Assembly (NCBI RefSeq): GCF_056712565.1
Contig: NZ_CM160072.1
Strand: one strand, 5' to 3'
Length of the DNA stretch: 64,000 bases
Made by a program: the position numbers and the translations under genes. Shown one piece after another: positions 14,833 through 64,000 of the stretch. A model generated the notes under the pieces. It made no database searches, had not been told where the DNA came from, and saw only the letters and a list, made by a program, of their open reading frames with translations. The first letter of the stretch is position 1. Each line of letters begins with the position of its first letter.

Positions 14833-14884
14833 ATAGCCGCCTTGTTGTAATGACAACATTTTGCGGCTATTCTTGAATTGTTGA

Positions 14885-14950
14885 TGGTTCAAGATTAGCC
14901 CCCGTTCTGTTGTCAGGTTTTACCTCTCAACGTGCGGGGGTTTTCTCTTT
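14885..14950 (+). ncRNA. Candidate Rdl antisense RNA of the ldr locus (approximate)
   Basis: Plus-strand hairpin (cccccg...cggggg) followed by T-rich run at about 14895-14950, antisense to the ldr 5' leader; placement inferred from known LDR organisation, coordinates approximate. Confidence 0.3.
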
Positions 14951-32256: not shown

Positions 32257-32574
32257 TTATGGGCACGGTGCGGGGGGAGTTGTCGGATGCGCTTCGCTTA
32301 TCCGACCTACAGGGGAGGATATTTTAGGTCCGGTAAACGCGGTGCCATTGGGCAGAATTAGCTCGGAGTAACAGGTTTTGAGTATTTCAGGAAGAAATGG
32401 TGGTGGGGGAAGGATTACTCAGCGCTGCGCGCTTCGCCCTACGGGTCGTTGCCTGCGGCAACGCTCTCTCGCTGGCCTCGAGTCGAACCTTGGTCGAAGC
32501 TTCTCATCCTTCCCCGCATGGGCAGAATATTTAATTGCGGATTCGTTTGAGAATTCAGGGGCTTTTGTAAGCGA
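32257..32574 (-). repeat. tyrT-distal repeat region (rtT/tpr-like); diverged about 178-bp units each beginning with a tRNA-Tyr 3'-end-like segment
   Basis: tggtggtgggggaaggatt (tRNA 3' end) recurs at 32396-32416 as ggtggtgggggaaggatta; a minus-strand reading frame ends ..[19 protein letters not shown] (arginine-rich, protamine-like tpr-type tail). Confidence 0.5.
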
Positions 32575-32659
<85 letters not shown>

Positions 32660-32692
32660 AGGGGTAATTCATATTGTAGGTAATGCTTGAGA

Positions 32693-32777
<85 letters not shown>

Positions 32778-38680: not shown

Positions 38681-39298
38681 ATGGCACAGCTATATTTCTA
38701 CTATTCCGCAATGAATGCGGGTAAGTCTACAGCATTGTTGCAATCTTCATACAATTACCAGGAACGCGGCATGCGCACTGTCGTATATACGGCAGAAATT
38801 GATGATCGCTTTGGTGCCGGGAAAGTCAGTTCGCGTATAGGTTTGTCATCACCTGCAAAATTATTTAACCAAAATTCATCATTATTTGATGAGATTCGTG
38901 CGGAACATGAACAGCAGGCAATTCATTGCGTACTGGTTGATGAATGCCAGTTTTTAACCAGACAACAAGTATATGAATTATCGGAGGTTGTCGATCAACT
39001 CGATATACCCGTACTTTGTTATGGTTTACGTACCGATTTTCGAGGTGAATTATTTATTGGCAGTCAATACTTACTGGCATGGTCCGACAAACTGGTTGAA
39101 TTAAAAACCATCTGTTTTTGTGGCCGTAAAGCAAGCATGGTGCTGCGTCTTGATCAAGCAGGCAGACCTTATAACGAAGGTGAGCAGGTGGTTATTGGTG
39201 GTAATGAACGCTACGTTTCTGTATGCCGTAAACACTATAAAGAAGCGTTAGAAGTCGGCTCATTAACGGCTATTCAGGAAAGGCATCGCCACGATTAA
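38681..39298 (+). CDS. tdk: Thymidine kinase
   Basis: 205-aa [33 protein letters not shown]... Confidence 0.95.
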
Positions 39299-39424
39299 TA
39301 AGAATTTCTTTACTGACAGGGTGAGCAGGGCGCTTTTATCCTGTCAGTTCGTTTTACGCACTTCTTCCGGGCTATACACCCTTCTCGGCAGTTTTTTAAC
39401 GCCGCTATACGCCTCACAGAGCGC

Positions 39425-40630
39425 TTATACACCGACATTGACTTGTAACCTGTAAAGTACAATATCGCTGTGTGTAGGCGTTATACATCGTCGCAAATAT
39501 GATGAAGGACAATGCTGCCGGTTTATGGAAAAGTTGTTTTGGGAAAACAAAAAACGGCCCCAGAAGGGGTAATGCCAGTCAGTTAAGCAACTGACTGGCT
39601 CTTTTTCGGGGCTGTGGGGTATTTCCAGGGCCTCTCCTTTACCACTCTCGGGAAGGCCCTTTCCCTTCTTGTCGGTAATTTCACTGGTTGTCCCATACTT
39701 GCAAGATCGCGCATCAGCTCCGGTATACGTCCCGGTGAAGCGTATGGCGTCCGTCATCGACGTCAGCAGATGGCAGACTTTTCCTTTGCGCGTCACGGTC
39801 AGCAGGCGGGCTGTCACCTCATTTCCCAGTCCCGGCCACTTTTTTCGTGCCTGCGGGCTGATGTTCAGCTTCACCAGATGATCGCCTTTACCCAGTTTTC
39901 TGATCTCTTCATATTGCGCTCCCTTTCTGAGAGGGATCATCCAGTGGCGGTGTTCTCCCGCCAGGCTCCAGGCATTTAACAGTCCTGGTGAGTAATAACC
40001 TTTATCCATTAACGTCAGAGTGTTATCGCCGGTTTGTTCTATAAGTTGCTCAGCAAGCTCATTTTCGCTGTTCTTCATCGTGCCGAAGGCTGCAGTCGTC
40101 AGCAGATGGCTGGTCAGTTCCATCTGGCAGACCATTTTGACCTGCGGGTAGAGCGCCGGGTTCCCGGCATGTGTCTGGCGGGGGAAGGCTGCATCGTTCT
40201 CTGGTGTATCCGGTGTGCGCCAGAACACACCATCGATGGCCAGCAGGGTCAGGCCGCACCAGTGCGGATGCGGCGTGGCGTTATGCCAGAGCTGCGCTGT
40301 TTTCGTGAACACGCGGCGGACAGCCTCAATTCCCAGACGCTGGCGGGTCTGAATAACGGCACTGGGGGCAACGAAGGGGCGATTGCCCGGCAGCATGATG
40401 TCCAGGCGATTCACAATCTGGTGAAGAGGTTCTTTACGCTCAAGCGCCATGCCAACAATACACCAGACCATCATTTCGAGGGGAAGACGGCGCTTGCGTA
40501 GCGTTACAGTACCTGATTCGGCAAGGCAACGAGAGATGAGTTTGGGGGCGAGGTAATCCCCCAGAGAAGTCAGTGGGTTACGCAGAGAATCGTAACGGGA
40601 TACCAAATCAAGGGCCTGCCCAATGAGCAT
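39425..40630 (-). pseudogene. insZ: IS4 transposase, disrupted: N-terminal about 300 residues look intact, C-terminal part is out of frame and reads through the left IR
   Basis: 401-aa [29 protein letters not shown]... resembles IS4 transposase as I recall it; the reading frame does not stop inside the element (ends 130 bp beyond the IR), indicating deletion/frameshift; K-12 carries an insZ pseudogene at this tdk-adhE position. Confidence 0.6.
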
Positions 40631-40729
40631 ACAAAAATCCGGAAACGAGTGAGCGTTTCCGGATTCTTACACAGCCACTGGATCGGTCAACTGATCCTTA
40701 ACTGACTGGCATTACCCCAGAAGGGGCCG
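39555..40729 (-). mobile_element. IS4-derived element, internally deleted (about 1.18 kb versus about 1.43 kb for intact IS4)
   Basis: 31-bp terminal inverted repeats cggcccc(agaa/ttct)ggggtaatgccagtcagtta at 39555-39585 and 40699-40729 flank an IS4-type transposase ORF. Confidence 0.65.
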
Positions 40730-40755
40730 TTTATGTTGCCAGACAGCGCTACTGA

Positions 40756-43431
40756 TTAAGCGGATTTTTTCGCTTTTTTCTCAGCTTTAGCCGGAGCGGC
40801 TTCTTTCTTCGCTGCAGTTTCGCCTTCTACATAATCACGACCGTAGTAAGTATCCAGCAGAATCTGTTTCAGCTCGGAGATCAGCGGGTAACGCGGGTTA
40901 GCGCCGGTGCACTGGTCATCGAATGCATCTTCAGACAGTTTATCCACGTTCGCCAGGAAGTCTGCTTCCTGAACGCCAGCTTCACGGATAGATTTCGGAA
41001 TACCCAGTTCAGCTTTCAGCGTTTCCAGCCATGCCAGCAGTTTCTCGATCTTAGCTGCAGTACGGTCGCCCGGTGCGCTCAGACCCAGGTGGTCGGCAAT
41101 TTCAGCATAACGACGGCGAGCCTGCGGACGGTCATACTGGCTGAATGCAGTCTGCTTGGTCGGGTTGTCATTCGCGTTGTAGCGAATAACGTTACAAATC
41201 AGCAGGGCGTTTGCCAGACCGTGCGGAATATGGAACTGGGAACCCAGTTTGTGCGCCATTGAGTGACATACACCCAGGAAGGCGTTCGCAAACGCGATAC
41301 CCGCGATAGTCGCTGCACTGTGAACACGTTCACGCGCTACCGGATTTTTAGACCCTTCGTGGTAGGACGCTGGCAGATATTCTTTCAGTAGTTTCAGTGC
41401 CTGCAGAGCCTGACCATCAGAGAACTCAGATGCCAGTACAGAAACATAAGCTTCCATGGCGTGAGTTACTGCGTCCAGACCACCGAAAGCACACAGGGAC
41501 TTCGGCATGTCCATAACAAGGTTGGCGTCGACAATCGCCATATCCGGGGTCAGTGCATAGTCTGCCAGCGGATATTTCTGACCAGTAGTGTCGTCAGTTA
41601 CAACCGCAAACGGAGTGACTTCAGAACCTGTACCAGAAGTGGTGGTGACAGCGATCATTTTCGCTTTCACACCCATTTTCGGGAACTTGTAGATACGTTT
41701 ACGGATATCCATAAAGCGCAGCGCCAGTTCTTCGAAGTGAGTTTCCGGATGTTCGTACATAACCCACATGATCTTCGCAGCGTCCATCGGGGAACCACCA
41801 CCCAGCGCGATAATCACGTCTGGTTTGAAGGAGTTTGCCAGTTCTGCACCTTTACGAACGATGCTCAGGGTCGGGTCAGCTTCTACTTCGAAGAAGACTT
41901 CAGTTTCAACGCCTGCTGCTTTCAATACGGAAGTGATCTGATCAGCATAGCCATTGTTGAACAGGAAGCGGTCAGTCACGATGAGCGCACGTTTGTGGCC
42001 ATCAGTAATCACTTCATCCAGCGCGATTGGCAGGGAGCCACGGCGGAAGTAGATAGATTTCGGAAGTTTGTGCCACAACATGTTTTCAGCTCGCTTAGCA
42101 ACGGTTTTCTTGTTGATCAGGTGTTTCGGACCAACGTTTTCAGAGATGGAGTTACCACCCCAGGAACCACAACCCAGAGTCAGGGAAGGTGCGAGTTTGA
42201 AGTTATACAGGTCACCGATACCACCCTGAGAAGCCGGGGTGTTAATCAGGATACGAGCCGTTTTCATTTTCTGACCGAAGTAAGAAACGCGAGCCGGTTG
42301 GTTATCCTGGTCAGTGTACAGGCAAGAGGTATGACCGATACCGCCCATAGCAACCAGTTTCTCTGCTTTTTCTACCGCGTCTTCGAAATCTTTAGCACGG
42401 TACATTGCCAGAGTCGGGGACAGTTTTTCATGTGCGAACGGTTCGCTTTCATCAACAACGGTCACTTCACCGATCAGAATCTTGGTGTTTTCTGGTACAG
42501 AGAAGCCTGCCAGTTCAGCAATTTTATAGGCTGGCTGACCAACGATAGCCGCGTTCAGCGCACCGTTTTTCAGGATAACGTCCTGAACAGCTTTCAGCTC
42601 TTTACCCTGCAACAGATAGCCGCCGTGGGTTGCGAAACGTTCACGTACTGCGTCATAAACAGAGTCAACAACAACAACAGACTGTTCAGAAGCACAGATT
42701 ACACCGTTGTCGAAGGTTTTGGACATCAGTACAGATGCAACTGCACGTTTGATATCAGCAGTTTCATCGATAACAACCGGAGTGTTGCCCGCGCCTACGC
42801 CGATAGCTGGTTTACCGGAGCTGTATGCGGCTTTAACCATGCCCGGACCACCAGTCGCGAGGATCAGGTTGATGTCTGGGTGGTGCATCAGTGCGTTAGA
42901 CAGCTCAACAGAAGGTTGATCGATCCAGCCGATCAGATCTTTCGGAGCACCGGCAGCGATAGCAGCCTGTAGAACGATATCAGCCGCTTTGTTGGTTGCA
43001 TCTTTTGCACGCGGGTGCGGGGAGAAGATAATGGCGTTACGGGTCTTCAGGCTGATCAGCGATTTGAAGATAGCAGTTGAAGTCGGGTTAGTGGTCGGAA
43101 CGATACCGCAAATAATACCGATGGGTTCAGCGATAGTGATGGTACCAAAAGTGTCGTCTTCAGACAGAACACCACAGGTTTTTTCATCTTTATAGGCGTT
43201 GTAAATATATTCAGAAGCAAAGTGGTTTTTGATCACTTTATCTTCGACGATACCCATGCCGGATTCGGCAACGGCCATTTTCGCGAGTGGGATTCGAGCA
43301 TCTGCAGCAGCCAGAGCGGCGGCGCGGAAGATTTTGTCTACTTGCTCTTGAGTGAAACTGGCATATTCACGCTGGGCTTTTTTTACACGCTCTACGAGTG
43401 CGTTAAGTTCAGCGACATTAGTAACAGCCAT
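40756..43431 (-). CDS. adhE: Bifunctional acetaldehyde-CoA/alcohol dehydrogenase AdhE
   Basis: 891-aa [36 protein letters not shown]... Confidence 0.97.
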
Positions 43432-56354: not shown

Positions 56355-56459
56355 GGTAAAACCGACTTAAAAGGAAAATCACAGGCGCGATGCTACTATG
56401 ATTTTCCTGAGGAGAACAGAGGAGATACAGCGCCAGCCCCTGAAGGACTGGCAGTCTGG

Positions 56460-56999
56460 TTAGGATTTATCTTCCTGCGGCATGTGGCGGTAGATATAGA
56501 TACCGCTTAACAATGTGAAGATTAAGGTAAGGGCGGTCAGGCCAAAGACTTTAAAGTTGACCCAAATATTTTGCGGCAGCCAGAATGCGATGTAGATGTT
56601 TGCCAGACCGCAAAGGATAAAGAAAACAGCCCAGGCCAGATTCAGCTTCGACCATACCGATTGCGGCAGGGTGAGTTCTTTACCCAGCATCCGCTGAATT
56701 AGCGGCTTTTTCATCACCCATTGGCTGACTAACAGGGCACCCGCAAACAGGGCATAAATGACAGTAACCTTCCATTTAATAAACTCATCATTGTGGAAGA
56801 ACAGCGTCAAGCCACCGAAGACGACCACCAGAACAAAAGTGATCAGGGCCATCTTCTCAACCTTACGAAAGCGAACCCAGCTATATATAAGCACAATCGC
56901 CGTGGCGACGATGAGCGCCGCAGTAGCCGCATAGATGTCATAAATCTTGTAAAACGCGAAAAAGACAACCAGCGGTAAAAAATCAAGAAACTGCTTCAT
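56460..56999 (-). CDS. yciB: Intracellular septation / inner-membrane protein YciB
   Basis: 179-aa hydrophobic ORF. Confidence 0.9.
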
Positions 57000-57028
57000 T
57001 TTACGATTCCGTAATCAAATGCTTAAGG

Positions 57029-57772
57029 TTATTGGCGAATCAACATATACAGGCGGAACAGATAGATGAGCAATACGGCTGAAATCAGGTTGCTCAAGGT
57101 GTTCGCCAGTACGGCACCAATTTCCGGGGTTAATGCGGCAAAAGAAGAGGCAAAAAGCAGCAACAGTGTTTTTGCCAGCAACCAGCTCAGTACTGCGGGT
57201 GCCACCAGACGCATATTCGCCCATGTCAGCCGCATACTGCTACGCATCGAGGCAAAAACGCCCATTTTGTCCTGTACCAGCATCACCGGTGCCAGAGCCA
57301 GTAAAATGGCCATGATAATTCCCGGAACGACCACCAGCATGATGCCAATCTGTACTAAAAGGGTAGTCAGAAAAATCAGAATAAATAACTTTGGTAATAT
57401 CGGCGCACTGGCACCAATAGCTCGCAGCGCACTGACTCTCTGACCCGCAGACACCAGCTGGATAATTAATATTACGCCCCCGGCGAGAATGGCGTTACCG
57501 ATTAATCCTGAAAAAGTGGACGCCGCTGAAGCCTGCAGCAAAATTTGTTGCTGTTCCGGTGACATATTCTGAACCAGGTCGAACAACCCACTACTGCCGC
57601 TAACGGGTACGCCGTCATTGAGCTGCGCAAGCTGTGCATCACTGGGTGAGAAAACATGCCCTAACACCACTGTGATAAACGCACATAGCAACGATACCAA
57701 CAGAATGGTCATAAATTGATTACGGAAAAAATTTCCGGTGTCACGGTATACGGACTGCGCCGTGATAGACAT
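57029..57772 (-). CDS. yciC: Inner membrane protein YciC (UPF0259)
   Basis: 247-aa hydrophobic ORF. Confidence 0.9.
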
Positions 57773-58127
57773 GCACTCTCCTTGAGTTTTATGCAGGTGT
57801 TAATTAGCGGGCAATTGTACCCTGGTTAAGCCCCGGGTGGCAGCATCAGGTCTTGTATGGAAAAGCATATCTTTGTAAAGCGGAGGTAATTGCTGGCCTT
57901 CAGGCGTGGGCAAACCGCTGAAAGTGGCGAGCGAGTTAATATTTGCGTAGCGAAATATATAAAAATTGATTTAAATCACATTAACCAGGATTTTCAATGC
58001 AACTTCTAAATTAATCCAGATCAATAAAGGGTGAATTACCATATGTAATGTGATCTGTGTAGGATCATTTGTTACCCCAATGTGGGTATATTCGTCACGT
58101 TTTTATAACCATAACGACGGAGCGGAT

Positions 58128-58766
58128 ATGAAAAAGTTAACAGTGGCGGCTTTGGCAGTAGCAACTCTTCTCTCTGGCAGTGCCTTTGCACATGAAGCCG
58201 GCGAATTTTTTATGCGTGCAGGTTCTGCAACCGTACGTCCAACAGAAGGTGCTGGTGGTACGTTAGGAAGTTTGGGTGGATTCAGCGTGACCAATAACAC
58301 TCAACTGGGCCTGACGTTTACTTATATGGCGACCGACAACATTGGTGTGGAATTACTGGCAGCAACGCCGTTCCGCCATAAAATCGGCACCCGGGCGACC
58401 GGCGATATTGCAACCGTTCATCATCTGCCGCCAACACTGATGGCGCAGTGGTATTTTGGTGATGCCAGCAGCAAATTCCGTCCTTACGTTGGTGCAGGTA
58501 TTAACTACACCACCTTCTTTGATAATGGATTTAACGATCATGGCAAAGAGGCGGGGCTTTCCGATCTCAGTCTGAAAGACTCTTGGGGAGCTGCCGGGCA
58601 GGTGGGGGTTGATTATCTGATTAACCGTGACTGGTTGGTTAACATGTCAGTGTGGTACATGGATATCGATACCACGGCTAAGTACAAATCTGGTGTTACT
58701 ACCGTAAAAGACTCGGTACGACTGGATCCGTGGGTGTTTATGTTCTCCGCAGGATATCGTTTTTAA
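58128..58766 (+). CDS. ompW: Outer membrane protein W
   Basis: ORF 58050..58766; start placed at ATG 58128 (MKKLTVAALAVATLLSGSAFA signal), 212 aa, C-terminal ..GYRF. Confidence 0.95.
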   Translation: MKKLTVAALAVATLLSGSAFAHEAGEFFMRAGSATVRPTEGAGGTLGSLGGFSVTNNTQLGLTFTYMATDNIGVELLAATPFRHKIGTRATGDIATVHHLPPTLMAQWYFGDASSKFRPYVGAGINYTTFFDNGFNDHGKEAGLSDLSLKDSWGAAGQVGVDYLINRDWLVNMSVWYMDIDTTAKYKSGVTTVKDSVRLDPWVFMFSAGYRF

Positions 58767-58770
58767 TTTT

Positions 58771-58803
58771 CTCTGCAAAACCTCTGCAAAACCCCTCTGC
58801 AAA
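58771..58803. repeat. Three tandem copies of an 11-bp unit CTCTGCAAAAC (third with a CC insertion) immediately 3' of ompW stop
   Basis: ctctgcaaaac ctctgcaaaac (cc)ctctgcaaaac read directly in sequence. Confidence 0.8.
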
Positions 58804-58804
58804 A

Positions 58805-58829
58805 CTGGTCATCAAATGACCAGTTTTTT
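58805..58829 (+). terminator. ompW Rho-independent terminator (ctggtcat-caa-atgaccag + TTTTTT); the integrase stop codon lies inside this hairpin
   Basis: Perfect 8-bp stem + U-run; integrase stop codon at 58812-58814. Confidence 0.75.
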
Positions 58830-59942
58830 CCATTCCTTACCGCGTGCGTCGTTGTAAATATCGGTCATTTTTTGATTCGAATGGCCCAGCAAAATTTTGG
58901 TATCAACCCCCTGCTCTCTGAACAATCGCTCTGATAAAGATCTCTGCTCATGGAAAGAGGGTGGGGTGCCATTAGCACGCCAGTTGTAATCCACAGAATC
59001 CCGGGCTTTTTTAAATGCAACGGTTAATGTTGCTGGCTTAACCATCCCGCCGCGCTTAGCTGTCCCTTTCGCGTGATGGTGGTGCAATAGCCACGGACTA
59101 AGAACGCAATCGCGGCAGGATGACACCACATCATCTAGGGTGAGATTTAATTTATCGCAACGCAGAGCCAGAGGGATGGCAATCCGGGTTCCTGTTTTTT
59201 GCTGTTCGACATGAAGATAACCATCCCGGATATCCGAAAATTGCATTTTGCAAATATCTGAAAGGCGCTGGCCTGTCATCAGTGCCAGCAGCATACCGCG
59301 CTGTAAAAAGTAACCATCCTTTTCCGCTGCGTTATAAATCATCATCCACTCATCAAAAGTCAGTCGCTGTCTTGATATCCGCACCTGCGGTTTTTTTGCC
59401 GATTCTGCAGGGTTAAAGCCTGGCGGGACATCGCCCGTTTGCTGAGCTTCCCGGAAAACATCGATCAGTACTTTCCTGAAAATTTGTCCCATTCTGTTAT
59501 GTCCTCTGGCCTTGTACTCTTCCAGTACTGATACCACATCTTTTACGGTTATGGCATCTAACGGTCTGGTGCCAAAACGTTCATCAAATACCCTGAGAGG
59601 GGCCGCTTTCTGTTTCAGCGTGTTGAGTTTGATCTCGCCGTTTTCATATCTTTCCTGTTGAATTTTTCTGTAATTATTCAGAAAAATGGTAACGGTTGAT
59701 GAACCGCCGGTGTCACTAATAATTTTCTCCTGCAGACTGAGCATTTGTTCCATTTGCTGCCGGGCAAGACGGCTGTTCGCTTCTGCTGCAATAGTTTCTG
59801 CCAGTTTCTGGTCAATACTGCCGAGACCGTGATTTTTGCCTGTTATGGGATGCCTGTAACGCCAGTAAACTTTGTTATTTCTTTTGTCAAAATACGGAGA
59901 TAATCCCGGAACATCGGTTTTATATTTTCGCGGGCGCGCCAT
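58812..59942 (-). CDS. int: Lambda-family tyrosine integrase
   Basis: 376-aa ORF; strong resemblance to lambda Int including GQRLSDICKMQFSDI..YLHVEQQKTGTRIAIP and PPSFHEQRSLSERL..LLGHS...IYND (catalytic R, H-x-x-R, Y). Confidence 0.92.
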   Translation of the reverse strand: MARPRKYKTDVPGLSPYFDKRNNKVYWRYRHPITGKNHGLGSIDQKLAETIAAEANSRLARQQMEQMLSLQEKIISDTGGSSTVTIFLNNYRKIQQERYENGEIKLNTLKQKAAPLRVFDERFGTRPLDAITVKDVVSVLEEYKARGHNRMGQIFRKVLIDVFREAQQTGDVPPGFNPAESAKKPQVRISRQRLTFDEWMMIYNAAEKDGYFLQRGMLLALMTGQRLSDICKMQFSDIRDGYLHVEQQKTGTRIAIPLALRCDKLNLTLDDVVSSCRDCVLSPWLLHHHHAKGTAKRGGMVKPATLTVAFKKARDSVDYNWRANGTPPSFHEQRSLSERLFREQGVDTKILLGHSNQKMTDIYNDARGKEWKKLVI

Positions 59943-60168
59943 CTTCCAGTATCCTCTTCAAAGCAGGGTGATCTGTGGCGATCACCTCCGGCTTGTTTAC
60001 CATTCCGACAAAGCGAGCTTGCGGATCCACTCGCCAGCGTCTTCCAACTTTTTTGGGGAGAGGAAATATCATTCCGGCTTTAGCGTATTTACTTAACGTA
60101 CTCGGAGTAGGGACCGGTTCACTGAATTCCTCCTTTGCCCACTCAGTGAGCAGAATAAGTCTTGCCAT
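59920..60168 (-). CDS. xis: Excisionase (lambda Xis-like)
   Basis: 82-aa ORF immediately upstream of and overlapping int; LLTEWAKEEF...IFPLPKKVGRRWRV parallels lambda Xis LTLQEWNARQ...IFPPPVKDGREYLF. Confidence 0.75.
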   Translation of the reverse strand: MARLILLTEWAKEEFSEPVPTPSTLSKYAKAGMIFPLPKKVGRRWRVDPQARFVGMVNKPEVIATDHPALKRILEDGAPAKI

Positions 60169-60232
60169 GAGCGTCGTTCGCTAATCATGGTCGCCGCCAC
60201 TATAGCTGGTGGGCAACGACCGGGGTTGAACA

Positions 60233-60775
60233 TTAAAAATCAGCCTGATTTGGGATCAGTTTTTGCCAGATAGCTGAAACGTATTTTGCCTGGTAACGGG
60301 CGTCATCAAGTGCATTATGGCGCTCACCTTCGAATGGAATAGCCGTTCTGGCATCGAAGTCTATGGCTTTCCCCAGCTCAACGATTGTGCGTACATCGCG
60401 ATCGTTGTAGTAACGCCACGGGCAGGGGATCCCCTGCCGTTCGTATGAACGGCGCAAAATCGTGTTGTCGAAGTTGGCTCCATTTCCCCAAACCTGAACA
60501 AAAAATTCACCGGAGTTTTCGTCGATAAATTCCCGCAATTGTAACAGTGCATCATCTAACGGGATTTCATCGGTCATAATGGCAGATTGCGCTTCGCGTG
60601 ATTGCTTAAGCCACCATTTAATGGTGTCCCGATCAATGACTCCGCCAGCAGTTTCCAGATCGATAGTCTTACTAAATTCCGGTCCCATATCTCCGGTTTG
60701 CGGATCGAAAAATATTGCACCTATTGAGATGATCGGGGCATCAGGATTTTTTCCCATGGTTTCAAGGTCGATCAT
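60233..60775 (-). CDS. Phage-encoded DnaQ-like (DEDDh) 3'-5' exonuclease
   Basis: 180-aa ORF with Exo I (MIDLETMG), Exo II (WGNGANFD) and Exo III (HNALDDARYQ) motifs. Confidence 0.7.
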   Translation of the reverse strand: MIDLETMGKNPDAPIISIGAIFFDPQTGDMGPEFSKTIDLETAGGVIDRDTIKWWLKQSREAQSAIMTDEIPLDDALLQLREFIDENSGEFFVQVWGNGANFDNTILRRSYERQGIPCPWRYYNDRDVRTIVELGKAIDFDARTAIPFEGERHNALDDARYQAKYVSAIWQKLIPNQADF

Positions 60776-60808
60776 TAGATGGTCACACGTCCTGCTGGTG
60801 GATGTGAT

Positions 60809-62704
60809 TTAGTGATGACCGTTCACCTTAATTGGGTGATCTGCCGTCTCGCCAGTTTCATTATCGCTATTGTGATGCTGATTGCCGCCAGTGTTCTCCT
60901 TGTGTGGATGTTCAGCGCCTTCCATTTCCTCCGGATCATCTTCCTGAACTTCAACCTGATACTCTTCATCGAATGTTTCTTGGTATGTTGCGTCGCCCAT
61001 CACCGCGCCACAATCAGGACAGTTGCCGCCGCCGGTCTGACCGCAGGCGGTGCAGGCTTTTTCCACTTCCTGGTGCGCCACTGGTTCAGGCTGTTTCGTT
61101 TCTGGCTCGTTTTGTAACGCATTTGGACTGTTTTGTTCCGCTTTTTGGTAGTTCCGTTCCGATTCATGCTGGTTCTGGCTCACAGAATCGCGGGTCTGGA
61201 TCCCCTTAATCCATTTCGGATCATTCGGGTCACTAATCCCTTCAACAAATTCACCACGTGATGCAGCAAGCAACTTATCGGCGTCAGGCTGGCTGATATT
61301 GGCTGCCTGCATAATTTTGTTTACTTCGTCAGCGGTAACTTTTATCGGCTCTGGTTGTTCTGAATCTTCAGCGGTATCTACATTTTGCGGTAAGCCCGTG
61401 TATGTGCCATTTTTTCGGGCAAAATATTCTTCTTTTGTGATTTCAGTGGCGCCAGCAGCCAGTGCCTTATCCAGACCAGAAAGTTTGTTTGCGCGACCGT
61501 ATTTTTCTCCGTCCTTATCTGCGAAGAGGAAATAGAACGGCCCCTCACGCTCTACAGATGGTTCAGCTTCCGGCGCGGTTTCATTTTTTGGGATATCAGA
61601 TACCTCAGTTTCCACTGCATCAGTTTGTGTTTCTGATGACTGGAGAACATCAACAGTGCCCAGGTCTGTTTCTTCATTCTCAAACACGCCCTTTGTCGTC
61701 AGGTATTCGCAGATATATTTGTTCAGTGCTACGGGATCTTTGTGAATGTCGATCGGACGCTCACGGACAAGGCCAAAAATAGTTTGGCGGTCGTAGCGAA
61801 GGGCATCAGGCTGTTTGCGCATTGATGCCGAGATACGCTTCCAGTCTTCGCGGTCGTTGTCGATAACTTCTTTTTTTGCCCAGCGATGGATGCTGCCGTC
61901 AATGTTTCCGGCATCCACATCACCAGGCCAGAGAGCGTAGGCCAGTTCGTCATCCAGTGTTTTCCATGTCTGCTTGTATTCGCGATGAATGGCAGCAATG
62001 ACCGGGCTGATTTTTCCTGTTGAATTTTCAGTGTACTGTTGATTGGCTCTGGCGCGGGCGAGATCAACAACAGACGTGTATTTTCCGGTTTCCTTGCGTT
62101 CACCTTCGCGACGTTTTTTCCAGATGCGCATCTCTGCCTGAATTTCGGGCCATTTAGCACCAGGAATACATTTATGCTTAACCCACCCAATGGCGTGCAA
62201 CTTAAGATCCGGATACATGGCGTTAACTTCTGGCATTTTCATCAACGCTTCAACGATATGTCCGTCGAATGTTGCCATGTCTTCCTGCAACAATTCCTGT
62301 GCGCTAATAACCATATCAACGGTGATGTTTTCACATGTGTCGAACTTAACCATGACAGCGTTCTGTACTTCAGGGGCCAGCTTGTCAAAAGTGACGTTCA
62401 TCGGATCGGATTCAGTCTCGACCGGAACAAAGGAAGCAGACGCCTCATCCCAGCGGTTTTCCTGCATATATTCAGCATCCCAGGAATCGAGGGCTGGGCG
62501 GGGTATACCGGGTTTATCCTCGCAAACAAGAAATTTATAAGCGCAGTCCTGAGCAGCCGGATAATGTTCCAGGAATTGCCAGTGAAATTTTGCGCGGGCG
62601 CGACGTTCATCACCGGCTTCAATGGCAGTGGCTACAGCGACGGCACCTTCTTCCTTTATTGCCTGTTCGTCCGGAATGGCGGCGCAAATAAAGACTTTAC
62701 TCAT
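60809..62704 (-). CDS. Large acidic hypothetical protein (631 aa) of prophage early region; C-terminal Cys4 zinc-ribbon-like motif (CTACGQ...CPDCG) and His-rich tail
   Basis: Long uninterrupted ORF co-oriented with int/xis/exo; GAGGT Shine-Dalgarno 8 nt upstream of ATG at 62704; no family recognised by eye. Confidence 0.7.
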   Translation of the reverse strand: MSKVFICAAIPDEQAIKEEGAVAVATAIEAGDERRARAKFHWQFLEHYPAAQDCAYKFLVCEDKPGIPRPALDSWDAEYMQENRWDEASASFVPVETESDPMNVTFDKLAPEVQNAVMVKFDTCENITVDMVISAQELLQEDMATFDGHIVEALMKMPEVNAMYPDLKLHAIGWVKHKCIPGAKWPEIQAEMRIWKKRREGERKETGKYTSVVDLARARANQQYTENSTGKISPVIAAIHREYKQTWKTLDDELAYALWPGDVDAGNIDGSIHRWAKKEVIDNDREDWKRISASMRKQPDALRYDRQTIFGLVRERPIDIHKDPVALNKYICEYLTTKGVFENEETDLGTVDVLQSSETQTDAVETEVSDIPKNETAPEAEPSVEREGPFYFLFADKDGEKYGRANKLSGLDKALAAGATEITKEEYFARKNGTYTGLPQNVDTAEDSEQPEPIKVTADEVNKIMQAANISQPDADKLLAASRGEFVEGISDPNDPKWIKGIQTRDSVSQNQHESERNYQKAEQNSPNALQNEPETKQPEPVAHQEVEKACTACGQTGGGNCPDCGAVMGDATYQETFDEEYQVEVQEDDPEEMEGAEHPHKENTGGNQHHNSDNETGETADHPIKVNGHH

Positions 62705-62796
62705 TTTGTTTTACCTCATTACAGATTTAAGGGTGAACAAATCCCTGCCATTGCTGGCATATAAGAATGAAATCGGATGTTTATTACGGAACTGTT

Positions 62797-62988
62797 TTAA
62801 AGACCTGCCGGGATTTCGTTATTATCCTGGTGAATAACTTTATCGACCGGGTAACAGTTACCGGGAATTTTCTGTTCGGTTGCTGCAGTCACACACTCCT
62901 GCATTGTCCTGTGAACACTGACTGCAGTATCAACTGGCTCTCCGGAAACAAGAAAAACTGTCAGAACAAGTGCAAATGCTGTATTCAT
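62797..62988 (-). CDS. Small secreted/membrane protein (63 aa, signal-peptide-like N-terminus MNTAFALVLTVFLVSG, two Cys)
   Basis: ORF 62797..63042; start placed at ATG 62988 with AGGA Shine-Dalgarno 9 nt upstream. Confidence 0.45.
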   Translation of the reverse strand: MNTAFALVLTVFLVSGEPVDTAVSVHRTMQECVTAATEQKIPGNCYPVDKVIHQDNNEIPAGL

Positions 62989-63738
62989 TGCCAGCATCCT
63001 TTTTGTATCGGACGTAAACGGGCCAACATTGAAAGAATGCATATTTTATTTAATAGCTCCCGTTCGTGTTTTCTCTTGTTAATGGCATCTTCAGTAAATA
63101 CAGGGTTACTGATAGTGACACCAATTTCAAAACAACCTTCAGACGTATTAACGTTTGGTAATAACGTTTCCATTATCGCGTCCTCAACAATGAATTTTGT
63201 GATGCGGTGCCTGGTGCTTCCAGGTGACGTTAACCAGTTAACAATTAACGCCGGATACAGAGAATCCACCCATAACACTGTTTTTGGTTTTAACTGTTCC
63301 GCGTGCGCTTAGCCGCATTCACCGCATCACAAAATTCACTTTAAAAAGGGCGGCAGAGCAGTCACGGAGTAAAACTGATACCGCCAAACGTCACCAGAAA
63401 ATTGATAACAGAGGGCGTTGCAGCGGGGTTGTCACTTAAGCGTATGGTCAACCTGACAACCCGGTGTCCTCAACGGTGGAAGGAATAACCCCGCCATACT
63501 TACCGCCGCGCCATTTCGCGGATTGCCACAACCGGAAGCGCACGGTCGACGAAAATTTAACGACAGGCTATCTATGAACCAGCTACCTCGCCGTGCGCTT
63601 TCGCGTTATGGTCTGACTTTTCAGGGAAATATCCTTTCAGTAAACTGTCAGTGCCGGATGCTCACCCGTGTCCGGCGCACGCACTCCACCTCACCCGTGG
63701 AGAACTCCTTAATTACCAACCTTAGCTTCGTTGGTTAG

Positions 63739-63960
63739 CTATTCACGCGGGTATGTAATCATTCTGGCAATGCTTAATGCCGCTGCTTTTTCCAGATTGG
63801 TGATATCCTGCTCCAGAGCGGACAGATTTTCAGCCTGCTTAGCCCTGGCTTCATTGGCCCATTTCAAATCCTGCGCTGCATTAATTTTCTGGCGCATCCA
63901 CTCATAAAGTTCATCATTGGTATAGTCTGGCGCGATGATGACGGGTTCTCGTTTCTGCAT
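63739..63960 (-). CDS. Hypothetical phage protein (73 aa, predicted helical, ..LSALEQDITNLEKAAA..)
   Basis: ORF with GAGGAA Shine-Dalgarno 7 nt upstream of ATG; co-oriented with prophage early genes. Confidence 0.5.
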   Translation of the reverse strand: MQKREPVIIAPDYTNDELYEWMRQKINAAQDLKWANEARAKQAENLSALEQDITNLEKAAALSIARMITYPRE

Positions 63961-64000
63961 ACTGATTCCTCGCGGTGCTGCTTCGCTTATCAGCCGTTAG

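Follow-up and report, generated by a model that had tools for sequence, protein, structure and literature searches.

An internally deleted IS4 copy inserted in the adhE terminator hairpin

Introduction

In IS10 and IS50, RNA secondary structure protects the transposase genes from read-through transcription, and these IS4-family transposases act mainly in cis. IS4 itself reportedly favours targets with the consensus AAA-N20-TTT. The catalytic triad of the reference transposase InsG is D133, D209 and E314, with 75 residues between the first two and 104 between the last two; the insG coding sequence stops 14 nt short of the IS end. K-12 also contains ISZ, with a degraded transposase remnant (insZ) that is ~31% identical to InsG, a full-length ISZ relative reaching 39%. 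IS4-family transposases are defined by D(60-110)D(100-150)E plus Y(2)R(3)E(6)K (PMC2266710), and the ends of the IS4 subgroup by the signature -AATR... (PMC2266710 Table 1); the same source remarks on 'spectacular' specificity in the target arms. REP-targeting IS elements insert into extragenic palindromes (PMC1525189).

Here, we describe an IS4 copy located between tdk and adhE in a 64-kb window (the whole stretch of DNA analysed), and compare it with these systems.

Results

In a nucleotide alignment with K-12 IS4/insG, 1121/1145 aligned bases are identical (97.9%); one 281-bp gap interrupts the alignment, the interior being otherwise colinear with the reference. A sequence-only reading of this DNA had placed an internally deleted IS4 between tdk and adhE, and all three elements of that description are borne out, with the loss amounting to 281 bp rather than the ~250 bp first proposed. 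At 1145 bp the copy falls below the 1400-1650 bp size range of the IS4 subgroup because of this deletion. A full-length 1426-bp IS4 occupies the tdk/adhE site in strain GF130. The RefSeq entry for the element in UTI89 reads 'IS4 family transposase, frameshifted', and PGAP calls a pseudogene; the copy is an ordinary relic, already known from RefSeq annotation. Identity with K-12 insZ was considered and rejected, as DNA similarity between the K-12 element and IS4 is confined to the terminal 18-34 bp. An Rfam search of the 39-41 kb region returned no RNA family. The element and its borders are as follows.

39570..40714, transposase on the minus strand: IS4 copy with one internal 281-bp deletion, 1145 bp
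39570..39587: transposase-distal terminal inverted repeat, TAATGCCAGTCAGTTAAG, holding the native transposase stop TAA (minus strand, 39583-39585)
40697..40714: transposase-proximal terminal inverted repeat, CTTAACTGACTGGCATTA, 18/18 complement of the other end
39558..39569: left copy of the target-site duplication, 12-bp CCCCAGAAGGGG, direct repeat, single copy in the empty-site allele
40715..40726: right copy of the target-site duplication, 12-bp CCCCAGAAGGGG, direct repeat, single copy in the empty-site allele

Inverted-repeat arms can be drawn at 39552-39587 and 40697-40732 (36 nt, 89% complementary), but this repeat is a composite in which IS4 ends account for no more than the innermost 18 bp of each arm. 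Therefore the element measures 1145 bp and not the 1175 bp proposed from repeats taken to be 31 bp long, even though an inverted repeat does bracket the region. The window contains the 18-mer TAATGCCAGTCAGTTAAG in exactly two places, in inverted orientation (0.05 occurrences expected by chance), and the -AATR... signature of the IS4 subgroup is found at both ends, in an 18/18 match. The canonical proximal end of IS4 reads ...GATCGG... and is only 16/18 complementary to its partner; here the right repeat has CT in place of the canonical TC, and the repeats are therefore perfect. The ccccagaagggg hairpin, previously assigned to the inverted repeats, is instead the 12-bp target duplication, derived from the loop and upper stem of the adhE terminator; CCCCAGAAGGGG appears inverted because it is itself a stem-loop. 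The suggested check for a target-site duplication thus gave a clear result, with a 12-bp copy on both sides and a single one in the empty allele, within the 10-13 bp range of the IS4 subgroup (PMC2266710). The empty site of strain TB06052 shows that the outermost AAACGG/CCGTTT sequences come from the adhE terminator present before the insertion, in which they form the outer stem.

40756..43431, minus strand: adhE coding sequence, the terminator of which is the insertion target
40727..40732, minus strand: proximal half of the split adhE terminator (CCGTTT plus / AAACGG minus), 24 nt past the adhE stop
39546..39557, minus strand: distal half of the split adhE terminator, comprising the outer stem (AAACGG plus / CCGUUU minus) and the U-tract

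The empty site in TB06052, aaaaaaacggCCCCAGAAGGGGccgtttatg, carries a single CCCCAGAAGGGG within an intact terminator. On the minus strand it folds into a 10-bp stem followed by U7 (-22.9 kcal/mol), and the native terminator reads AAACGGCCCC-UUCU-GGGGCCGUUU followed by a U-run, beginning 24 nt past the adhE stop. Hence, the empty-site hairpin has the G+C-rich stem-loop and U-tract of a rho-independent terminator. IS4 entered this hairpin with the 12-bp duplication centred on the loop; the A-tract, 10-bp stem, loop and T-tract suit the symmetric target preference of IS4. The insertion destroyed the adhE terminator and probably replaced its function.

39732..39742: deletion junction CCGGTGAAGCG, from alignment with intact IS4
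39425..40630, minus strand: 401-aa pseudogene ORF, with the native IS4 frame from 40630 to ~39743

In intact IS4 the lost 281-bp segment is flanked by CCGGTGAAGCG and CCGGGGAAGCG, a 10/11 microhomology, which fits a deletion between imperfect 11-bp repeats by slipped or illegitimate recombination. The native part of the 401-aa ORF comprises transposase residues 1 to ~296-298 and keeps D133 and D209. Missing are residues ~297 to ~390, and with them both E314, the last member of the DDE triad, and the Y307-R310-E314-K321 signature; YSHRWEIELGYREIK, the YREK motif of InsG, lies inside the deleted segment, so that the ORF has neither this motif nor a complete triad. Profile searches agree with this outline: PF13006 (Nterm_IS4) is matched in full (E = 1.4e-30, profile positions 2-95 of 95), Pfam DDE_Tnp_1 over positions 3-116 of 200 only, and NCBIfam NF033592 over positions 3-275 of 332. 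Because the native stop lies within the terminal repeat, the shifted frame leaves the element and ends 145 nt beyond it, crossing the inverted repeat, the duplication and then 133 nt of host intergenic DNA. The minus-strand frame running from 40630 to 39425 through the left repeat was described correctly at the outset, except that its overrun of the true IS end is 145 nt and not 130 bp. The normal transposase C-terminus is lost, as had been noted; without it, E314 and the Y-R-E-K motif, no active transposase can be made from the tdk/adhE copy. With the catalytic E absent, the frame shifted and pN/pS ~1, the copy does not appear to be an autonomous insertion sequence, judging from its sequence.

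The open frame could be taken for a domesticated truncated transposase made up of the N-terminal DNA-binding domain and part of the core, which would either bind IS4 ends and so inhibit IS4 transposition, as the Tn5 inhibitor protein does for its element, or control a host gene. All 401 codons are open in 6/6 alleles that are up to 1.75% diverged, the complete Nterm_IS4 domain is kept, and a promoter-like site lies upstream. However, pN/pS among four deleted alleles is 0.7-1.6, as expected for neutral change, vs 0.06 between intact IS4 copies, and selection on the open frame was rejected on these values. By rough estimate, chance escape from a stop codon over ~20 substitutions is not unlikely, while the last ~100 residues of the ORF consist of out-of-frame IS sequence and intergenic read-through. 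Other IS4 matches occur in 7/16 sampled deletion-allele genomes, giving no sign of exclusion, and the PGAP pseudogene call also speaks against a functional protein. We therefore consider domestication most improbable, and the deleted alleles drift neutrally.

The distribution of the allele was determined across 5426 complete E. coli genomes. The tdk/adhE site is empty in ~2200, holds IS4 in ~1130 (1133), and in ~1930 the adhE hairpin contains ISZ, a different relic of the IS4 subgroup, as in K-12. Full-length IS4 is found at the site in GF130 and in roughly 80-90 further genomes, and IS4 places across all 5426 genomes total ~5900. The 281-bp-deletion junction is present in 1043-1050 genomes, counted at ≥80% coverage with queries of 58 nt (megablast) and 51 nt (blastn); full-length IS4 partially matched these queries via the microhomology (35 and 38 nt, above threshold). 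Junction, tdk/adhE location and duplication position are identical in 6/6 alleles examined. The loop of the right duplication copy is inverted in 2/6 alleles. Between UTI89-type and EC958 alleles the element is 1.75% diverged and the flanks ~0.7-1%. These sequence comparisons indicate vertical inheritance in a lineage including UTI89, S88, APEC O1, EC958 and Nissle 1917, which we take to be phylogroup B2 strains.

A deleted copy with both 18-bp terminal repeats intact and perfectly complementary might still be mobilised in trans, as a MITE or mobile insertion cassette served by full-length IS4, which is also present in many deletion-allele genomes. Against this, every inspected deleted copy sits at tdk/adhE with an unchanged duplication position, and junction records (1044-1051) are about equal in number to genomes (1043-1050). 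The sole 'plasmid' match, pMY504-2, was evaluated as a case of mobilisation and discarded: it is a linear 237-kb record with rssB-galU-hns-tdk-adhE-ychE, i.e. a chromosomal fragment, and hence provides no evidence of mobilisation. A non-autonomous but mobile element is accordingly quite improbable, and the copy is better regarded as a relic fixed at its site.

The adhE terminator having been split by IS4, adhE transcripts should no longer stop at the native hairpin. A hairpin native to IS4 lies in their path.

40633..40668, minus strand: native IS4 hairpin with a 10-bp G+C-rich core stem and a 6-nt loop, then U5; predicted adhE terminator
40663..40690, minus strand: promoter-like site TTGACC, 16 nt, TG-AAGAAT, a consensus match only; probable transposase promoter

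The core stem contains 6 G-C pairs and can be extended to 15 bp; folding gives -32.3 kcal/mol (z = -6.2). The structure combines a stem-loop with a U-tract and lies 88-123 nt downstream of the adhE stop, falling 3 nt short of the transposase ATG (40630). A terminator scan of the minus strand did not list 40668-40633 among its sites; in our reading, maximal stem extension consumes the U-run. By analogy with ISZ in K-12, and given the predicted fold, this hairpin probably ends the adhE mRNA in the present allele, in which case the mRNA would finish ~90-125 nt past the stop codon, at the IS4 hairpin and U5 just before the transposase ATG. In K-12, Term-seq detects a strong 3' end at 1295324(-), with 100,225 reads (PMC7815308 supp. 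file 1), classed as 'orphan' by the authors and unassigned to adhE mRNA (PMC7815308). This position corresponds to the U-tract of the ISZ hairpin; the adhE stop is 122 nt upstream of it, and the insZ ATG follows after 2 nt. The -10 hexamer of the predicted transposase promoter overlaps the 5' arm of hairpin 40633-40668; in an active IS4, the same hairpin would stop outside transcription from driving transposase expression. A substitute terminator would render the insertion nearly harmless, which may help explain why the relic persists.

The opposite end of the element contains a second hairpin.

39574..39606, plus strand: native IS4 subterminal hairpin, 11-bp stem, 4-nt loop, then TCTTTTT, -19.6 kcal/mol
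38681..39298, plus strand: tdk coding sequence
39313..39355, plus strand: tdk intrinsic terminator, CTGACAGG...CCTGTCAG then TTCGTTTT, -20.5 kcal/mol

This hairpin, with its perfect 11-bp stem (arms 39574-39584/39589-39599) and T-rich run, exists as originally described and contains the normal IS4 transposase stop codon. It is not an addition to the left end, however, but native sequence identical in K-12 IS4. It had further been suggested to terminate tdk transcription or to shield the adhE 3' end, and it does rank first among plus-strand terminator-like sites (11-bp stem, 4-nt loop, TCTTTTT). Neither role agrees with the surroundings. A hairpin terminator belonging to tdk is present 200 bp upstream (~39313-39355), and the K-12 tdk 3' end is mapped at 1294198(+), within the homologous sequence (PMC7815308 supp. 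file 1). On the minus (adhE) strand the left-end hairpin is followed by AUUACCCC, not by a U-tract, and adhE transcripts must first pass the stronger hairpin (-32 kcal/mol) and U5 at 40668-40633, met >1 kb earlier, so that the left-end structure could not easily protect their 3' end. A function as tdk terminator or adhE 3'-end stabiliser is thus improbable, and the hairpin resembles a terminator that would act on plus-strand transcripts running into IS4 antisense to the transposase.

We also considered the target preference of IS4. Among 12 distinct IS4 sites sampled, canonical terminator hairpins account for 5, and A-rich and T-rich arms are seen at most of the rest, although part of this sample is biased toward query-like flanks and in the unbiased part (K-12 site included) terminators make up 2/7 distinct sites. 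The raiA/bamD terminator contains IS4 insertions with both 12-bp and 14-bp duplications, and the adhE hairpin has also been entered by full-length IS4 (GF130) and by ISZ (K-12). IS4-subgroup elements could, on this pattern, home preferentially into A-tract/hairpin/T-tract terminators, carrying their own terminator inside the transposase-proximal end as a replacement. We hold this idea tentatively and think it somewhat more likely wrong than right. Under it, the adhE hairpin may have been struck independently at least 3 times, by the now-deleted IS4, the full-length IS4 and ISZ.

Discussion

Taken as a whole, the data are best explained by IS4 insertion into the adhE terminator hairpin and a 281-bp deletion within IS4, leaving a dead, neutral relic in which an IS4 hairpin probably replaces the adhE terminator; we regard this account as highly probable. 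The dead copy itself is of little importance, and its K-12 equivalent ISZ/insZ is already catalogued. The tdk/adhE spacer is nevertheless a clear case of recurrent insertion into one terminator hairpin, and its three states (empty, IS4, ISZ), which cover ~97% of the 5426 genomes, could serve as a simple lineage marker. Lineages differ in the 3' UTR and terminator of adhE, which is a fermentation gene with high expression, and in K-12 IS-derived sequence appears to set where the adhE mRNA ends. Studies that compare K-12 with UTI89-type strains for adhE expression or for the stability of its mRNA should take this into account. If terminator homing were true, adhE would rely on an IS-borne terminator in over half of the 5426 genomes (~1130 with IS4 and ~1930 with ISZ), and the 'orphan' K-12 3' end at 1295324(-) would mark the end of adhE mRNA.

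The closest relative of the present element is the K-12 IS4 (insG; 1426 bp, 442-aa transposase), with which it shares the 18-bp ends, the subterminal hairpins and the transposase orientation. It differs in the absence of 281 bp, in a frameshifted transposase devoid of E314 and YREK, and in being stuck at one chromosomal site, where it evolves neutrally.

The hairpin at the transposase-proximal end of IS4 resembles the protective structures of IS10/IS50 in that both arms are contained only in transcripts starting outside, and in that the -10 hexamer of the predicted promoter falls within the 5' arm. Unlike those structures, it has a U-tract as well, and so resembles a full intrinsic terminator.

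Like REP-targeting IS elements (PMC1525189), IS4 resides in hairpin-forming intergenic DNA with little harm to genes. It differs from them in that it appears to recognise A-rich/T-rich arms at a fixed distance, and in that only some of its sites are hairpins, these being unique-sequence terminators and not members of a repeat family.

The nearest parallel for the locus as such is the ISZ/insZ pseudogene (b4573) of K-12, which has the same target as the IS4 copy, the adhE terminator hairpin, and is centred on the same loop. Both share their orientation, IS4-type ends (CAATGCCGTTCACTTAAG in ISZ) and an internal deletion in which the YREK region is lost, and ISZ also has a hairpin and U-tract immediately upstream of the transposase ATG. 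In contrast, the ISZ duplication is 10 bp (CCCAGAAGGG) compared to 12 bp for the IS4 copy, its deletion is ~410 bp, and it is present in ~1933 genomes that lack the IS4 allele. Given the different element, the different duplication and the non-overlapping sets of genomes, ISZ represents an independent insertion into the adhE terminator, separate from the IS4 event.

The IS4 copy and its boundaries

The window is E. coli chromosome, with positions 39300-40800 showing 100% identity to UTI89, S88, APEC O1, IHE3034 and the type strain ATCC 11775. Features at the IS4 locus and elsewhere in the window are as follows.

14881-14946, plus strand: rdlD antitoxin RNA
32398-32777, minus strand: RtT element and two tRNA genes
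38681-39298, plus strand: tdk, converging with adhE on the IS4 region
about 39313-39355: tdk's own hairpin terminator
39552-39587 and 40697-40732: arms of the bracketing inverted repeat (36 nt, 89% complementary)
39558-39569 and 40715-40726: direct 12-bp target-site duplication CCCCAGAAGGGG, immediately outside the IS4 ends
39570-40714: IS4 copy by alignment to K-12 IS4, starting TAATGCC and ending GGCATTA
39574-39606: left-end hairpin (11 bp, then TCTTTTT), same sequence in K-12 IS4
39583-39585, minus strand: native transposase stop TAA, inside the terminal repeat
39732-39742: deletion junction CCGGTGAAGCG, the one remaining copy of the bracketing repeats
40630 to 39425, minus strand: 401-aa ORF, matching Pfam Nterm_IS4 in full
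40633-40668, minus strand: second native IS4 hairpin, AAGAAUCCGGAAACG-CUCACU-CGUUUCCGGAUUUUU, 3 nt before the transposase ATG
40690-40663: promoter-like site TTGACC-16-TG-AAGAAT, its -10 hexamer within the 5' arm of the 40633-40668 hairpin
40756-43431, minus strand: adhE, converging with tdk on the IS4 region
about 56370-64000: lambdoid prophage beginning beside ompW (integrase, excisionase, exonuclease, dicB, ydfC)
63348-63399, minus strand: DicF RNA (Rfam, 76.7 bits)

RefSeq labels 39583-40630 as 'IS4 family transposase, frameshifted'. The sequence-only reading had identified an internally deleted IS4 here, and this was borne out: K-12 IS4 (insG locus) aligns cleanly to the window copy in two colinear blocks, with 1121 of 1145 bases identical and a single 281-bp gap in global alignment. 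The dimensions required revision: the element is 1145 bp long between its true boundaries, not 1175 bp, and has lost 281 bp, not about 250 bp. The empty-site sequence (strain TB06052, aaaaaaacggCCCCAGAAGGGGccgtttatg, beginning 24 nt past the adhE stop) and the direct CCCCAGAAGGGG copies resolve the supposed 31-bp inverted repeat into three parts placed end to end: an 18-bp IS4 end, which alone belongs to the element (the window has just two copies of this 18-mer, inverted relative to each other); the 12-bp target duplication; and AAACGG/CCGTTT, the outer stem halves of the split adhE terminator. The duplication seems inverted because CCCC-AGAA-GGGG is itself a stem-loop, and the hairpin formerly counted as part of the repeat is this duplication, outside the IS4 ends.

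Every one of the six deletion alleles compared reads ...ACTGACTGGC... at 40705-40706, within the right IR, in place of the canonical ...ACTGATCGGC... (K-12, GF130). With this variant the IS4 ends are 18/18 complementary, versus 16/18 in the canonical form, and the right IR matches the left-end hairpin's inner arm (39589-39599) exactly.

Internal deletion, transposase frame and allele age

The 281-bp segment is flanked in intact IS4 by CCGGTGAAGCG and CCGGGGAAGCG; a single leftover repeat copy is the hallmark of slippage, or of illegitimate recombination, across short repeats. As 281 is not divisible by three, the frame is shifted and bypasses the native stop; it then crosses the terminal repeat, the duplicated target and 133 nt of host sequence before ending at 39425. 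The earlier description of a transposase lacking its normal C-terminus and reading across the terminal repeat into the flank was thus accurate. Of the 200 DDE_Tnp_1 profile positions, the 401-aa ORF matches just the first 116; its match to NCBIfam NF033592 ('IS4 family transposase') spans positions 3-275 of 332. InsG, the intact K-12 transposase (442-aa numbering), has D133, D209 and E314, separated by 75 and 104 residues, together with a Y307-x2-R-x3-E-x6-K motif, fitting the IS4 family definition of D(60-110)D(100-150)E with Y(2)R(3)E(6)K (PMC2266710). The window ORF is colinear with InsG until residue ~296 and divergent after, leaving it without the third catalytic residue and the entire YREK motif.

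Six deletion alleles were compared (UTI89-type, EC958, AGR5151, THO-006, E5 and MY504). All share the junction and the position of the 12-bp duplication, differ at no more than 20 of 1145 bases and retain an open 401-codon frame. Among four distinct deleted alleles pN/pS is 0.7-1.6, a range based on few changes (6-14 substitutions per pair), while intact K-12 and GF130 IS4 copies give 0.06. These ratios indicate neutral drift of the deletion relic; the open frame is no evidence of function. This IS4 relic, already annotated, is in neutral decay.

The element's flanks differ by ~0.7-1% between the window and EC958, and in these flanks empty-site alleles share 94-96% identity with the window. 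The tdk-side spacer (39300-39587) has only 92.4% identity to K-12 (positions 1647-1935 of the extracted locus), a divergence well above that usual for the E. coli core. Old allelic lineages or recombination at the tdk/adhE spacer would be suggested. In THO-006 and E5, CCCCTTCTGGGG replaces CCCCAGAAGGGG as the right duplication copy (equivalent of 40715-40726), with the 4-nt hairpin loop inverted and the stem retained, possibly by a template-switch or quasipalindrome mutation.

The adhE 3' end after insertion

Identity to K-12 IS4 makes the left-end hairpin native to the element, and not a local addition as first read. Its proposed role in ending tdk transcription or shielding the adhE 3' end is unsupported; tdk has its own terminator, in which the K-12 Term-seq 3' end at 1294198(+) falls (Adams et al. 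2021, PMC7815308, supplementary file 1).

The adhE-proximal remnant of the target is a short stem-loop, CCCC-UUCU-GGGG, to which the predicted fold adds one G-C pair; UAAUGCC comes next, and there is no U-tract. The next terminator-like structure on the adhE strand is the IS4 hairpin with U5 at 40668-40633 (-32.3 kcal/mol, z = -6.2 by folding). Transcription that enters from outside the element would yield the complete structure, and transcripts from the element's own predicted promoter would be without its 5' arm.

Direct 3'-end data come from the ISZ allele only, ISZ being the separate IS4-subgroup relic at this site in K-12. A strong Term-seq end of the 'orphan' class (100,225 reads) lies at 1295324(-), and none other is among the ends listed between it and one 3' end inside adhE (PMC7815308). 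This position (NC_000913.3; 2825 of the K-12 locus; context ...AACGGCUUCCACAACAGGGAGCCGUUUUCU) marks the U-tract belonging to the ISZ hairpin and is 122 nt downstream of the adhE stop, 81 nt into ISZ and 2 nt ahead of the insZ ATG. The ISZ-internal hairpin and U-tract just downstream of adhE explain the orphan end, which is most likely the adhE mRNA 3' end in K-12. The IS4 hairpin, at the equivalent position and stronger than that of ISZ, would end adhE mRNA in deletion-allele strains; by this analogy the message probably ends there. That an IS-borne hairpin seems to have become the replacement adhE terminator is mildly new.

The adhE terminator as a repeated target

On the adhE strand, the empty site has a 10-bp stem, 4-nt loop and seven-U run (-22.9 kcal/mol by folding), a textbook intrinsic terminator. 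Empty sites were rebuilt for 12 distinct IS4 insertions, part of this sample being biased through ranking by likeness to the query flanks. Canonical A-tract/hairpin/T-tract terminators were found at 5 of the 12 (adhE; raiA/bamD, in four genomes; rpoD/mug; adjoining glcA, between gspK and glcA; and a prophage site), and at 2 of 7 distinct sites in the unbiased part. Full-length IS4 occupies the same raiA/bamD terminator in all four genomes (L012, L017, L018, L023), with a 14-bp duplication in three and 12 bp in one; that hairpin was therefore hit independently at least twice. Most remaining sites lack a strong hairpin but have, a few bases beyond the duplication, an A-rich arm on the left and a T-rich arm on the right. 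The K-12 IS4 site, one of these, reads AAA-N20-TTT. An AAA-N20-TTT consensus for IS4 targets is reported in older literature.

Across 5426 complete E. coli genomes, the tdk/adhE site is empty in 2200 (synthetic empty-site query matched in one piece), holds IS4 in 1133 (1043-1050 with the deletion junction) and K-12-type ISZ in 1933, these states covering about 97%. A 'plasmid' match for the deletion allele proved to be a chromosomal fragment: on the 237-kb linear MY504 record (NZ_AP026904.1, 'plasmid pMY504-2'), rssB, galU, hns, tdk, adhE and ychE follow the order of the chromosome, and the record is probably mislabelled in the assembly.

The adhE terminator is a repeated landing site for IS4-type elements, the other mildly new point. 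GF130 carries a full-length IS4 with intact transposase and the same 12-bp duplication as the window, in differing flanks, which suggests a third independent hit on the hairpin. ISZ belongs to the IS4 subgroup but is an element distinct from IS4, and the degraded transposase remnant in K-12 has ~31% identity to InsG. It entered the same hairpin at the same loop centre with a 10-bp duplication (CCCAGAAGGG), and is therefore an independent event. A full-length relative on pUSDA5905_2 of E. coli O55:H7 (1447 bp, locus positions 389-1835) has on either side an 11-bp duplication, CGCGAAGCGGG, also a small hairpin. This relative has 92% DNA identity to K-12 ISZ and an intact 446-aa transposase (39% identical to InsG) with its own YREK motif; K-12 ISZ, missing ~410 bp including that motif, is thus itself an internal-deletion derivative.
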